From a virus: a stretch of DNA of 64,000 bases. The DNA is taken from positions 32,001 to 96,000 of IMG/VR virus record IMGVR_UViG_3300023179_000039; one strand, 5' to 3'. Within the stretch, counting starts at the first letter, position 1, and every line of letters starts with the position of its first letter. Below are positions 51,278 to 59,857 of the stretch, piece by piece. Made by a program: the position numbers and the translations under genes. The notes under the pieces are model-generated. The model did no database searches, was not told the origin of the DNA, and was given only the letters and a program-made list of their open reading frames with translations.

Positions 51278-53569
51278 ATGGTAACGCTCTATACAATGAC
51301 AACAGCCGATAGGGCTTCAGTTTTATATGATTTTAAGACTATTGACACGTCAAAAGACATAATAGTTTCTTTTGACTATAATAGTTCTGGTATTATTGAC
51401 AATGTAGGGGAGGGATTTAGTTTATTTTTTACCGAAAGTATAAACAATTTTCCCAAAGGTGGCGCTCTCGGCCCAGGATTAGGCGCAACAAGCTTGGTTG
51501 CTATTTCGAGCTTTTGTTACAGTATACCCATTCCTCCTTTTAATATTTGTGTTAATATTCCGGTTATGTATTCAGGAGTAAGAGAAGCTGCTTTAGTGGT
51601 TGGCTTTGATATTACTGGTAAATTTGGTTCTAATAATAGTGGATTAGATGGTCCCTCCGATCCAATACCTAACTCAATAGCTATTAGAAGCGGGTACAAT
51701 CAAAACTTTAATTTCATTTATAGAACACCCGCATTAACAAGTAACGAGATTGCCGAGCCTTTTAGTCTTTATAGTAATGATCAAACTACATACAACACAT
51801 TTAGAGCTAGGCTTACAAACTTAGGAAAAAATTTAATTTTAGATCATAAAATAGCTGACGGTACATTTTATAATATCTGTAACGTGCAAATACCTTATGA
51901 TCTACCTGGATATGTATATCCTTGTATCGGCTATAGTTCAGGAATAAGACCTTTTAATTTAACAGTTAAAAATTTTTATGAAAACGGATTTTTTGTAACA
52001 CCTACTAATACACCAACAGTTACACCTACGAATACCGTTACACCAACAGTAACACCTACGAATACCGTTACACCAACAGTAACACCTTCATTTACTGTCA
52101 CACCATCTAATACACCGACTTATTCGCCCACACCGTCTATAACACCTACTAATTCGATGACTCCTACTATTACACCGACCTATACAGAGACGCCCACAGA
52201 AACACCTACAAATACACCTACATTGACCATTACACCTACTAACTCGATGACGCCTTCTATTACTCCTACGTATACAGAAACACCAACAGTGACACCTACA
52301 AACTCGATGACACCTTCTATTACACCTACAAACACCGTTACACCGTCCTTTACACCTACAAATACACCGACCTTAACGCCTACACCTACGGTAACACCTA
52401 CAGTTACTCTACCTGACTACTTGCCATTCCCATCACAACAAAATAACATTATTATTAACGATAATACAATAGCTACACCTTACCCGGTTACATTTAGTGT
52501 AGCTGGAATTACAAGAACAGTTTACAAGGTAGTTGTAAAGCTTACAAATTATACCCATTCATTTGTAGGTGATGTAGGAATGCTTTTAGTTGCACCAGAT
52601 GGTACATCTACAATTATTGCTGGTAGAATTGGAGATGATCAACAGGCTAACAATACAACAGTTGTGTTAGATCAGCGTGCCTCTAAGGCATGGGATGGAT
52701 ACACATCAGGTACATTTAGACCTAATTCTGTCGCTGATGACTTCCCATTCGATGCACCAGCGCCTACTGGTCCTTTCTCAACTACATTAGATGCATTCTT
52801 CTATATGCCAGCTGTAAATGCAAACGGTACATGGAAACTTTACATACAAGACTTTGCTGCAGACGATGCTGGTACCATGCAGAGTGCAGAGCTTAGGATA
52901 TATCAATACTCACCTAATGCGTCGCCAACACCTACACCAACAATTACACCTACCTTTACTCCTACACCTACAGTTACACCTACTATACCAATTACACCCA
53001 CACAAACACCTACACTTACACAAACACCTACTATAACACCTTCTATTACTATTTCGCCTTCTAATATAGACTATACAGCTTTCCCATCTTCAACAACTAA
53101 TCTAATTATAAATGACTTGACTGTCGCCACTCCTTATCCTCTAGAGATACCGGTATCAGGCATAACTAATACAACATCCAGAATTTCTATATCCTTGAGT
53201 GGTTATGATCATTCTTATCCAGAAGACGTTGTAATGCTATTAGTATCTCCTGTTAATACCGCATGTATCATTTCAGGTAGAATAGGACTACAAGCGGCTA
53301 ACAACATTAATGTAATACTTGACCAAAGCGCTTCGCTTTATTGGGATGGATATAGCCCAGGAATGTTTAAGCCTAACACATCTGCAAATAATTTTGACAT
53401 GAGCTTAACTAATGGATGCCCTACCGGTCCGTACAATACATCTATGGCTGTGTTTAATAACTTACCATATCCCGATGTTAACGGAACTTGGAAGCTATAC
53501 ATTCAGGATTTCGCCGCTCAGGATACAGGTACATTGTATAGAGCTATACTAAGGCTTCATCATTATTAA
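51278..53569 (+). CDS. Mucin-like virion protein: lectin-like N-domain, two Thr-Pro tracts, two proprotein-convertase P-like domains
   Basis: GEGFSLFF...GG.LGPGLG...VGFD (L-lectin/ConA-like); HSFVGDV.MLLVAP...[10 protein letters not shown]...D.G occurs twice. Confidence 0.75.
51995..52414 (+). repeat. Thr-Pro (xTPT/xTPS) repeat tract, about 140 aa
   Basis: Includes a perfect 30-bp tandem duplication (52022-52051 and 52052-52081). Confidence 0.95.
52922..53062 (+). repeat. Second Thr-Pro repeat tract
   Basis: [47 protein letters not shown]. Confidence 0.9.
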
Positions 53570-53578
53570 TTAATAAGA

Positions 53579-57545: not shown

Positions 57546-59857
57546 TTAATACAAATAAAATACTTTCTTTTAATAATAAAAAACTTGATCCTTCTATAGT
57601 TAATACTGATCAAATAAAAAACATAGTACTTTATTTAGCTAGCTGTATTGATAGTAAACTACCTGGTGATGTAGTTGAACTTGGCTGCTATGTAGGTGAA
57701 ACTAGCAAATATATTTCTAAAACTATTGAAGAATCTAAGTCTAATAAAAAATATTATGTTTATGATTCTTTTGAGGGGTTACCCGATCTATCTAAATTTG
57801 AAGAAGGTACTGGGTGGAAGCCACGGACTCTTAATACTACTGAAGATATTCTTGTCTCAAATTTCGAACTTAATAATGTTCCGCTTCCCATTATAACAAA
57901 AACCTGGTTTAAAGATATAAAAAATAAGCAACTACCAAAGCAAATTTGCTTTGCTTTTTTAGATGGTGATTTCTACACATCAATTTATGAAAGCTTAGAA
58001 AAGGTATATGATAGAGTAGTTGACGGCGGTTATATCTTAGTACATGATTATAAAAGACCCGATCTACCAGGTGTAGAAGCAGCAATACAGGAATATTTTA
58101 GAATCAATAAATTAGAACTTAATATTATTGAAGCTTGTGAACAATTAGCAGTAATTAGAAAAAACAAAAAACCTGAAAAAATTAATACGCAAAAATCATG
58201 TTATACGATTGTAACGGGTCTTTGGGATATAGGACGCGATAAGTTAAAAGAAGGTTGGTCACGTGGTTATTCACATTACTTAGAAAAATTAGAAGAACTA
58301 TTAAAAGCTGATTTTAATCTTATTATTTTTGGCGATAAAGAATTGGAGAAGTTTGTTAGCGAGCGTAGATCTGACTACAATACACAGTTTGTCTTAAGAG
58401 ATATCGACTGGATTAAAAATATGCCATTTTTTGATAAAATTCAAGAAATTAGAACTGATCCTGACTGGTATACGCAAGCAGGTTGGTTAGCAGATTCAAC
58501 CCAAGCAAAGCTAGAGCTTTATAACCCCTTAGTAATGTCTAAGGTATTTTTATTACACGACGCTAAAATTCTTGATAAGTTTGATTCTGAATATTTGTTT
58601 TGGCTTGACGCAGGCATTACAAACACAGTGCATTATGGTTATTTTACACATGATAAAGTTTTAGATAAGCTACCTTCAATACTAGAAGATAAGTTTTTGT
58701 TTGTCAGTTTCCCCTATCCTGATGGCGCAGAAATTCATGGTTTTTCGCGTAATAAAATGAATGAAATAGCTCAAGCAGAGAATGTTGAGTATGTTTGTAG
58801 AGCGGGATTTTTTGGCGGGCCTAAGAATGTAATTTCTGAAATTAATAGTATTTATTACGGGCTATTGAACAGTACTTTAAGCGAAGGTTATATGGGTACA
58901 GAAGAAAGTATCTTTACCCTAATGACATACTTACACCCTCATTTATTTACAAGATTTTCAATAGAGGGTAACGGGCTGCTAGGTAAATTTTTTGAAGATT
59001 TAAAAAATATTAAAGTAGAAGATAAAAAGAAAGCAATTGATACAAATATCTTATCCGGCGTAACTCTTTATGTAATCACATTTAATTCACCTAAACAGTT
59101 CGCTACATTGTGTGAAAGTTATTTAAAGCAACCAGGTTTTATAAAGGAAACAACTAATTATCTTCTTGACAACAGCACAGACGCGTCTACATTTGATGAA
59201 TATAAAGCTCTTTGCGATAAATATAACTTTGTTCATATAAAGAAAGATAATCTTGGTATTTGTGGTGGTAGGCAGTTTATTGCTGAGCATTTCCACGAAA
59301 GTAATTCTAAATACTGCATTTTTCTAGAGGATGACATGACATTATGTACCAAAAATTTTGCACCATGTAAGAATGGGCTATCGCGCTTTACTAATAATTT
59401 ATTTTATAAGATAGTAAAAATTATGGATAAAGAAAAATTTGACTTTCTCAAGCTATCTTTTACAGAATTTTTTGGCGATAACTCTATTCAATGGGCATGG
59501 TATAATGTACCTCAGCATGTAAGAGAGAGTTTTTGGCCAAACAATAAAAAACTACCTCAGATGGGATTGGACCCTAATGCACCTAAGACAGAATTTAAGC
59601 ATATCAATAATATAGACGGTCTTAGCTATATTAATGGCGATATATACTATTGTAATTGGCCGCAAATAGTCTCAAAAGCAGGTAATAAAAAAATGTTTAT
59701 TGATACTAAATGGGCATCGCCTTTTGAACAGACATGGATGTCATATATGTTTCAGCTTACTAAACAAGGCGATTTAAAAGGCGGGCTTCTATTATTATCT
59801 CCTATAGAACATAATAGATTTGATCATTATTCTAATAAATTACGTAGAGAAAACTAG
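57542..59857 (+). CDS. Trimodular protein: TylF/NovP-type O-methyltransferase, HtrL/YibB-like transferase, GT-A domain
   Basis: PGDVVELGC, YDSFEGLP, FLDGDFY, HDY...PGV (TylF); TIVTGLWDIGR, WLDAG, TEESI (HtrL-like); FLEDDM (GT-A). Start moved to ATG 57542 (ATGA overlap). Confidence 0.78.
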   Translation: MINTNKILSFNNKKLDPSIVNTDQIKNIVLYLASCIDSKLPGDVVELGCYVGETSKYISKTIEESKSNKKYYVYDSFEGLPDLSKFEEGTGWKPRTLNTTEDILVSNFELNNVPLPIITKTWFKDIKNKQLPKQICFAFLDGDFYTSIYESLEKVYDRVVDGGYILVHDYKRPDLPGVEAAIQEYFRINKLELNIIEACEQLAVIRKNKKPEKINTQKSCYTIVTGLWDIGRDKLKEGWSRGYSHYLEKLEELLKADFNLIIFGDKELEKFVSERRSDYNTQFVLRDIDWIKNMPFFDKIQEIRTDPDWYTQAGWLADSTQAKLELYNPLVMSKVFLLHDAKILDKFDSEYLFWLDAGITNTVHYGYFTHDKVLDKLPSILEDKFLFVSFPYPDGAEIHGFSRNKMNEIAQAENVEYVCRAGFFGGPKNVISEINSIYYGLLNSTLSEGYMGTEESIFTLMTYLHPHLFTRFSIEGNGLLGKFFEDLKNIKVEDKKKAIDTNILSGVTLYVITFNSPKQFATLCESYLKQPGFIKETTNYLLDNSTDASTFDEYKALCDKYNFVHIKKDNLGICGGRQFIAEHFHESNSKYCIFLEDDMTLCTKNFAPCKNGLSRFTNNLFYKIVKIMDKEKFDFLKLSFTEFFGDNSIQWAWYNVPQHVRESFWPNNKKLPQMGLDPNAPKTEFKHINNIDGLSYINGDIYYCNWPQIVSKAGNKKMFIDTKWASPFEQTWMSYMFQLTKQGDLKGGLLLLSPIEHNRFDHYSNKLRREN

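Follow-up and report, generated by a model that had tools for sequence, protein, structure and literature searches.

A stretch of viral DNA of 64,000 nucleotides (hereafter the window), corresponding to bases 32001-96000 of the 109,659-bp IMG/VR viral contig IMGVR_UViG_3300023179_000039 (CheckV completeness estimate 51%), carries a gene for a protein with two long Thr-Pro (TP) tracts followed by an operon of five enzyme genes, the first of which encodes a member of glycosyltransferase (GT) family 60. We consider it probable that these genes make up a phage-encoded, cytoplasmic, mucin-type protein O-glycosylation system whose acceptors are the TP tracts of the phage's own fibre-module proteins. 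This is the best-supported reading; its support comes from homology, the modelled fold, genomic association and a single published glyco-stain of a distant relative. The central features are the following, in window coordinates:

51278..53569, + strand: P0001, 763 amino acids (aa), the predicted acceptor, with an L-type lectin-like domain, a TP tract, a P-domain, a second TP tract and a second P-domain
51995..52417, + strand: Thr/Pro tract 1, residues 240-380 of P0001, 141 aa with 59 Thr, 10 Ser and 31 Pro
52901..53065, + strand: Thr/Pro tract 2, residues 542-596 of P0001, 55 aa with 19 Thr, 5 Ser and 14 Pro
53579..53612, + strand: early/middle-type promoter, TTGATT-N16-TAAAAT-N6-GTG, before the GT60 start
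53613..54899, + strand: P0002, GT60 (PF11397) polypeptide N-acetylhexosamine (HexNAc)-transferase-like protein, the predicted initiator, with a catalytic domain at approximately residues 14-341
54908..55573, + strand: P0003, small GT-like phage protein, probably of the GT-A type and carrying an SDD motif, a predicted elongating transferase
55561..56907, + strand: P0004, with a GT25-like N-terminal half and a probable GT2-like C-terminal half
56904..57545, + strand: P0005, a CmcI/rhamnosyl O-methyltransferase-like S-adenosylmethionine (SAM) methyltransferase
57521..59857, + strand: P0006, a three-part fusion of TylF (residues 26-204), HtrL/YibB-like (229-478) and GT-A-like (approximately 510-778, EDD motif) domains

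A preliminary description of this DNA had placed a five-gene operon downstream of the tract protein, and open reading frames (ORFs) were found at exactly the coordinates it gave; the five ORFs following P0001 (53613-59857) are tightly spaced, the distances between neighbours running from -25 nt (overlap) to +8 nt (gap). The same description had called the first operon gene GT60-like, which both the profile and the structure searches bear out. P0002 matched PF11397 with an E-value of 1.2e-69 (235.9 bits against a cut-off of 21, and 205 bits in a six-frame search of the genome) and phrog_24687 with 560 bits; it had no NCBIfam match. Its ASYRD, DSH and GEE motifs are invariant in 30 homologues, as are D105-S-H107, H215-G-E-E and H242, which we take to be counterparts of three features of the polypeptide N-acetylgalactosamine (GalNAc)-transferases, namely their DxH motif, Gal/GalNAc-T motif and third metal ligand. 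An AlphaFold2 model of P0002 built on the 30 homologues had a pLDDT of 84.9. In a Foldseek search with this model, the 45 best Protein Data Bank (PDB) hits were all GT27 polypeptide GalNAc-transferases (best E 2.4e-10), and the top 29 rows of a VIA-align comparison with residues 14-341 were again all GT27 (Z 18-21.8 over approximately 275 residues, root-mean-square deviation (rmsd) approximately 3.5 Å), the next families (RmlT, SpsA and others) reaching a Z of at most 17.2. Sequence searches of the PDB, with P0002 alone and with the 30-sequence profile, gave nothing meaningful, so that the relation to GT27 is visible at the fold level only. Judged by its profile match and modelled fold, P0002 is a real GT60 and not merely a GT-A-like protein. 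The best structural match is to metazoan GT27 (Z 21.8, rmsd 3.5 Å, 273 residues), from which P0002 differs in its 13-16% identity, in the absence of a ricin-type lectin domain and in its CAZy family. GT27 enzymes share the DxH motif and the Gal/GalNAc-T-like "GEE" motif with P0002.

Characterised GT60 enzymes are all polypeptide α-N-acetylglucosamine (GlcNAc)-transferases, acting on Thr of mucin-like domains or on the hydroxyproline of Skp1, and the family is the protist counterpart of GT27; in Dictyostelium and T. cruzi it adds the GlcNAc with which mucin-type O-glycans begin (PMC8724618). The protist enzymes, such as Dictyostelium pp-αGlcNAcT2/GntB and the T. cruzi OGNTs, resemble P0002 in the PF11397 domain, the DxH motif, the GT27-like fold and the Thr/Pro-rich acceptors (predicted in the phage), and they too initiate a chain that other enzymes extend. 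Unlike them, P0002 is soluble, lacks a type II membrane anchor, would act in the bacterial cytoplasm with a predicted activity, and has an extra β-rich C-terminal domain of approximately 90 aa (approximately residues 340-428) that is conserved across the phage subfamily. Gnt1, which places GlcNAc on the Skp1 hydroxyproline in Dictyostelium and Toxoplasma, is alike in being a cytoplasmic, soluble GT60; it requires a prolyl 4-hydroxylase (P4H) and has a single-site substrate, whereas a P4H-type gene is mostly absent from the phages and their candidate acceptors are long repeats. The phage GT60 subfamily comprises at least 7,699 clusters at 90% identity in metagenomes (E <= 1e-5), and all 120 of the clusters listed carry PF11397 and are of environmental origin.

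The predicted acceptor P0001 starts 2 nt past the stop codon of the gene at 48139. Two TP tracts of about 140 and 47 aa had been described for it; there are indeed two, and the first is 141 aa long, but the second extends to 55 aa. The N-terminal 240 residues have a predicted L-type lectin fold (pLDDT 87.6) for which the top 50 Foldseek hits were all legume lectins, ERGIC-53 or VIP36, and two P_proprotein domains (PF01483, E 1.5e-12) lie one after each tract; P0001 had no NCBIfam match. Because the tracts link folded domains, the reading frame of P0001 is right. DNA coding for the pattern TPTxTPTxTP matched 41 times in the 110-kb genome, always on the + (coding) strand, and not once in 50 shuffles. 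Ser/Thr/Pro-rich tandem-repeat domains are thus encoded alongside a predicted initiating transferase, the combination by which a mucin-type system is recognised. Two more TP-repeat ORFs lie just past the window, at genome positions 97861-98043 and 98045-101500 (window-equivalent 65861-69500). They are paralogous, both starting with MA[RK]F[IV]FK..GG.GSN.VP and continuing into TP repeats. The first encodes 60 aa and the second 1151 aa, of which 506 are Thr (44%) and 201 Pro (17%), laid out as a 20-aa head, a TP tract of approximately 1000 aa (approximately 90% of the protein) and a C-terminal globular domain of approximately 105 aa. This 1151-aa protein is in effect a phage "mucin". The phage tracts are near-identical in style to the PTVTPTP...TPTVTPT domain of T. 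cruzi gp72, a protein that is approximately 50% carbohydrate (PMC3630849).

GT60 genes track TP tracts across phages. All seven GT60-positive metagenomic records that are at least 90% complete contain 6-26 matches to the TPTxTPTxTP-coding pattern, against 0-1 in the reversed control, while fragmentary GT60-positive records mostly lack matches. The cultured GT60-positive jumbo phages XacN1 and RAS14, which represent the only kind of cultured phage with GT60 as confirmed by hidden Markov model, contain 14 and 4 matches (control 0); cultured phages carrying both GT60 and TP tracts are XacN1, Xoo-sp13, RAS14 and CM1. The pattern was absent from all ten large cultured PF11397-negative phages used as controls (T4, phiKZ, P-SSM2, HTVC008M, Synechococcus B3, fENko-Kae01, G, GAP32, syn9 and 201phi2-1). 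Relatives of the same lineage were found through the sheath protein, with a single-protein search that gave 13 followed by an alignment-based search. Among them, G025, 100% complete and with 50% sheath identity, combines GT60 with TP tracts, while G080 (100% complete) and G082 (88% complete), each with 52% sheath identity, have neither. Overall, tracts are present in 9/9 near-complete GT60-positive genomes and in 0/12 GT60-negative ones, including the latter two same-lineage relatives, so the co-occurrence expected across related phages was found. In the reverse direction, PF11397 was detected in 16 of 48 viral records chosen only for the TP pattern; as a point of reference, 2.9 million contigs yielded 189 relatives in the peptide-pattern scan. 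Divergent GT60s were also seen in two genomes that have TP tracts, G058 (15212-15970) and G066 (25603-26160); one of the two lies inside an 820-aa ORF, as a fusion, and the other, from a complete 108-kb phage, is shortened to 342 aa.

The remaining operon enzymes would extend and decorate the first sugar. P0003, which had been labelled GT2-like, belongs to a phage GT-like family (phrog_14945, E 1.2e-8; language-model atlas score of 0.99 to phage GT-like clusters), but the GT2 label is weak. The GT25-like label of P0004 is likewise weak, since its match to PF01755 (GT25) stays below threshold (E 0.0076, 16.6 bits against a cut-off of 24), although a language-model score of 0.95 to GT25 and GT25+GT2 clusters, with 184-187 features shared with GT25 clusters, agrees with it; one matching cluster is from giant viruses and is likewise 448 aa long. 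Neither P0003 nor P0004 had an NCBIfam match. The methyltransferase and the TylF-HtrL-GT-A fusion that had been described were recovered by profile searches. P0005 matches PF04989 (RMNT_CmcI) above the Pfam cut-off (2.5e-5) and NF045824 (1.5e-4). In P0006, the TylF part matches PF05711, a family of sugar O-methyltransferases (4.6e-21), and, in the PDB, NovP (2wk1, 2.3e-10) and MycF (8e-6), the middle part matches HtrL_YibB (2.4e-13), and the C-terminal GT-A-like part has a weak match to phrog_842 (E 1.3e-6). No transmembrane segment, signal peptide or hydrophobic segment above KD19 1.7 was found in P0001 or the operon proteins.

In order to place the operon in context, 80 related viral loci with GT60 identities of 62-87% were compared. 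GT60 co-occurs with the TylF-HtrL fusion in 70 of the 80, and between these two genes lie 0-8 others that vary from locus to locus and belong to 45 further families. When representatives of these families were searched with Pfam, the matches comprised FkbM and other methyltransferases, a carbamoyltransferase, sulfotransferases, a GNAT acetyltransferase, a DegT aminotransferase, a nucleotidyltransferase and a HAD hydrolase, together with GTs of families GT25, GT10 (fucosyltransferase), GT17, GT34, GT7, GT31 and GT2; over 70 loci, the commonest families are GTs and methyl-, carbamoyl-, sulfo- and acetyl-transferases. From this gene content, the island is a hypervariable diversity region for putative glycan tailoring, with GT60 and the TylF-HtrL fusion as its fixed ends, and the glycan is therefore expected to differ between phages. 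Across loci L003-L082 the island holds families usually thought of as belonging to the eukaryotic Golgi (GT10, GT17, GT34, GT7, GT31, RXYLT1-like proteins and sulfotransferases), and its carbamoyltransferase is like the one beside GT60 in XacN1.

The main rival to protein glycosylation is remodelling of the host envelope, in which the cluster would change the O-chain of the host lipopolysaccharide (LPS), its capsule or some other glycan at the surface, for instance as a block to superinfection, and the TP tracts would be plain linkers. GT clusters in the "host recognition cluster" of pelagimyophages and cyanomyophages have been read in this way, a reading that was itself inferred (PMC7029224). 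Their setting is the same, with GTs among the tail-fibre genes of T4-like aquatic phages; those clusters differ in being dominated by GT8, and are interpreted as modifying the host O-chain with no link drawn to TP tracts or GT60 (PMC7029224). The hypervariability of the island, which is shared with O-antigen loci, the early/middle promoter of the operon and the naming of the GT25 and HtrL_YibB families after LPS loci also fit an envelope target. The GT25 name does not imply LPS, however, because the collagen hydroxylysine galactosyltransferases are also GT25 enzymes. None of the characterised GT60s is active on lipid-linked glycans (PMC8724618), the cluster lacks membrane proteins, and the 25 most frequent Pfam families of the 45 island gene families include no flippase, polymerase, ligase or initiating phosphoglycosyl transferase, although the host's own enzymes could provide for these steps. 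Envelope remodelling would also leave the tracking of phage TP tracts by GT60 unexplained, and we regard it as unlikely.

The promoters suggest a temporal order for the proposed protein glycosylation. Sites of the form TTGnnn-N16-TAnnnT-N6-RTG number 12 against 1.9 expected, and none of 100 shuffles reached 12. Eleven of the 12 stand before gene starts, mostly those of replication genes (among them DNA polymerase, UvsX, helicase, gp32 and primase); the eleven also include the starts of an ORF at 40307, which lies just upstream of the clamp-loader gene, and of GT60 at 53613. The TTGATT-N16-TAAAAT-N6 geometry, with varied spacers, is present before GT60 in 15/15 close relatives. The second class, TAAATA-N5-RTG, has 16 sites against 4.6 expected, including those before the genes at 48139 and 59900. 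A generic sigma-70 scan, by comparison, gave 60 sites against 66 expected and is uninformative in this AT-rich DNA. The contrast between the operon promoter and the late-type ones of its neighbours, first noticed in the preliminary description, thus holds in both the site counts and the relatives, and it would have the enzymes produced ahead of the proteins presumed to be their substrates, as that description proposed. Early/middle sites lie, for example, at 2872, 5494, 5890, 10600, 13128, 15127, 16566, 17940, 19794, 40273 and 53579. Their geometry is rigid, the -10 box ending 6 nt before the start codon, as the late TAAATA boxes end 5 nt before theirs; the early/middle mRNAs would therefore be leaderless or nearly so.

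A promoter class shared with replication genes is also what would be expected if the glycan were attached to phage DNA at hydroxymethylated bases, in the manner of T-even phages. Phage GTs that place diverse glycans on DNA are known (cited in PMC12619734), and the phrog_842 family matched by the C-terminus of P0006 is that of β-glucosyl-HMC (hydroxymethylcytosine) α-glucosyltransferases. That match spans only the generic GT-A nucleotide-binding region, however, and PF00303 (dCMP/dUMP hydroxymethylase, ThyA family), on which glycosylation of DNA depends, was detected neither in this genome nor in any of four complete GT60-positive relatives, in a search that matched 10/14 control genomes. A search for TET/JBP (PF12851) matched no genome, controls included, and is hence uninformative. 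As both the fold and the family of GT60 argue for a peptide acceptor and the cluster sits in the fibre module, DNA hypermodification is very improbable.

An independent cultured case is provided by XacN1, an unrelated jumbo phage with the same layout of baseplate wedge, giant TP-tract protein and GT cluster with GT60. In XacN1, the wedge genes ORF323/324 are followed by ORF325 (3313 aa, with a TP tract), two small ORFs, a GT9 gene and one more ORF, and then by a divergent block ending in the carbamoyltransferase and GT60 (ORF334), the latter 47% identical to P0002; other TP tracts are found in ORF232, 236, 237, 370, 372 and 384. PAS (Schiff) staining of purified XacN1 virions revealed at least two glycoproteins, and the authors suggested that the phage's own transferases make them (PMC5852040).

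The purified virions of XacN1 also bear on whether the modified proteins are part of the particle. The TP tracts might instead be glycosylated on released or cell-bound mucin-like proteins, or the acceptor might be hydroxyproline and not Thr, both of which we hold to be improbable. The N-terminus of P0001 is a lectin fold and not a recognisable fibre-attachment domain, the 1151-aa protein is almost entirely TP tract, and the TP-tract proteins match no PHROG structural family, all of which agree with a non-virion protein. Yet the XacN1 glycoproteins came from virions (PMC5852040), the genes considered here lie between the baseplate wedge and fibre-sized late genes with P0001 immediately behind a late-promoter gene, and the TP-tract proteins examined lack a signal peptide. 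For the hydroxyproline variant, a P4H-type dioxygenase gene (PF13640) was found in one of four complete GT60-positive relatives and not in this genome. In its favour, the cytoplasmic GT60 Gnt1 uses hydroxyproline in a T-P-E context. A general hydroxyproline route is unlikely given the one relative in four with a P4H-type gene, and Thr/Ser is therefore preferred as the acceptor.

From the observed gene content, family memberships, fold, promoter classes and co-occurrence, we infer the acceptor, donor sugar, order of steps, virion location and function of the mucin-type system as follows. The five soluble enzymes would be made first, from the early/middle promoter, and the fibre proteins late. 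P0002, with its DxH metal site, would place the first HexNAc on Thr (or Ser) hydroxyls of the TP tracts of P0001, of the 1151-aa protein past the window and of similar proteins, most likely using the host UDP-GlcNAc pool and giving α-GlcNAc. The sugar would then be extended by P0003, P0004 and the HtrL and GT-A domains of P0006, and O-methylated by P0005 and the TylF domain of P0006. The outcome would be stiff, hydrated, protease-resistant "bottle-brush" stalks that hold the lectin-like and P-domain heads off the tail. An initiate-extend-methylate pathway, as had been proposed, is supported in that every computational test run came out in its favour. The accompanying proposal of a glycan that coats the virion goes beyond the evidence, as the predicted acceptors are linkers and tails of fibre-module proteins and not the capsid.

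Several points weigh against mucin-type glycosylation of the phage's own fibres. Glycan, acceptor, activity and virion location are predictions for this phage and its close relatives alike, made from sequence and structural models. The peptide acceptor of P0002 is extrapolated from protists, since no bacterial or phage member of PF11397 has been characterised, and the virion location of P0001 is argued from gene position and late promoter only. The PAS-positive bands of XacN1 have been linked neither to TP-tract proteins nor to GT60. Modification of the host surface or of DNA would suit early/middle expression just as well, so that timing does not discriminate, and the names GT25 and HtrL are tied to clusters of LPS genes. 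The counts behind the co-occurrence are small, partly non-independent and set against ten hand-chosen cultured controls, and many related loci have no TP tract within 10 kb of GT60, so adjacency is not general. Finally, six of nine complete viral records chosen for the TP pattern lack GT60, and TP tracts therefore do not need GT60; such phages may use another initiating transferase or carry bare tracts. The relation is asymmetric, GT60 always occurring with TP tracts and the tracts not always with GT60, as would be expected if the tracts are the enzyme's substrate. The complete genomes with TPTxTPTxTPT tracts and no PF11397 are G028, G042, G043, G044, G057 and G068.

Glycosylation of virions by phage enzymes has been shown before only for a few mycobacteriophages. 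In Che8, Corndog and Myrna, phage GTs O-glycosylate the phages' own structural proteins (Freeman et al. 2023, as cited in PMC12363180 and PMC12619734). There the hosts are Actinobacteria, the acceptors are C-termini of capsid and tail-tube subunits, and the GTs belong to other families; no GT60, mucin-like TP repeats or comparable hypervariable tailoring island is described in that work. The system proposed here would differ from known phage virion glycosylation in its GT60 initiator, its mucin-like repeat acceptors, its Gram-negative hosts (established for XacN1 and RAS14), its occurrence in T4-like and jumbo phages and its hypervariable tailoring island. Chlorovirus PBCV-1 is comparable in its virus-encoded cytoplasmic glycosylation, multi-domain fusions and O-methylated sugars. 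It differs in being a eukaryotic giant virus that places N-linked glycans on its major capsid protein without a GT60 initiator. The PBCV-1 pathway (A064R and others) does not depend on the endoplasmic reticulum or Golgi and includes GT-GT-methyltransferase fusions. PBCV-1 is cited in PMC5852040. Literature searches on GT60/PF11397 with phages identified no paper linking them to TP-tract proteins.

A broader proposition, which we put forward tentatively and which falls somewhat short of being probable, is that many aquatic and soil phages encode their own mucins together with a complete eukaryote-like mucin-type O-glycosylation pathway operating in the bacterial cytoplasm, in which a GT60 initiator is followed by hypervariable fucosyl-, galactosyl-, sulfo-, carbamoyl- and methyl-transferases and the appendages become strain-specific glycan brushes. 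If the proposed system is real, the "auxiliary" GT genes, a large class, would have their role in the phage particle itself and not in host LPS, the long TP tracts of phage fibre proteins would be explained, and mucin-type O-glycosylation, until now a process of the eukaryotic secretory pathway, would gain a bacterial-cytoplasm version. How GT60/GT27 mucin-type glycosylation arose in eukaryotes is a question on which the phage GT60 clade may throw light, and glyco-engineering could draw on soluble enzymes able to glycosylate simple TPT repeats in the bacterial cytoplasm.

The window has a GC content of approximately 32%, and the whole stretch is present in one sequencing run only, a lake-water metagenome that may be the source sample; no RNA run was listed as containing it. 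By its PHROG matches, the phage is a distant T4-like myovirus, with DNA polymerase, UvsX, helicase, gp32, primase, large terminase and clamp loader as well as sheath, tube, a tape-measure-like protein and a baseplate wedge. None of 50,697 phage records matched the 8.6-kb region in a Megablast search. The large terminase (23278-26055) shares no more than 34% identity with its counterpart in any cultured phage, a figure reached by its best cultured relatives, those of Synechococcus phages B3/B23. At 925 aa, it is far longer than typical T4-type terminases, and its extra C-terminal part matches phrog_24361 (residues 724-841). A further GT-like gene (1448-2704; phrog_7162, E 1e-21; no Pfam or NCBIfam match) lies outside the fibre module, between an SbcC-like gene and the DNA polymerase gene. 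The genes flanking P0001 and the operon are the following:

42837..44690, + strand: baseplate wedge protein (phrog_219, E 7e-44), first of the tail-fibre/host-recognition module
44693..48130, + strand: 1145-aa protein with a PKD domain (PF18911, 5e-10), presumed fibre or baseplate-distal protein, syntenic in 18 related loci
48139..51276, + strand: 1045-aa large late protein, with a TAAATA late box 5 nt before its start
59889..59899, + strand: late-type TAAATA box 5 nt before the P0007 start
59900..60628, + strand: P0007, 242 aa, a small fibre-module protein ending in a short Ser/Thr tail
60648..63998, + strand: large late protein of more than 1117 aa that runs off the window, a presumed fibre protein with no match in a Pfam search

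Where P0007 itself stops, its orthologues in related loci continue into C-terminal TP tails of 40 to approximately 200 aa, and the length of these tails is highly variable between relatives.

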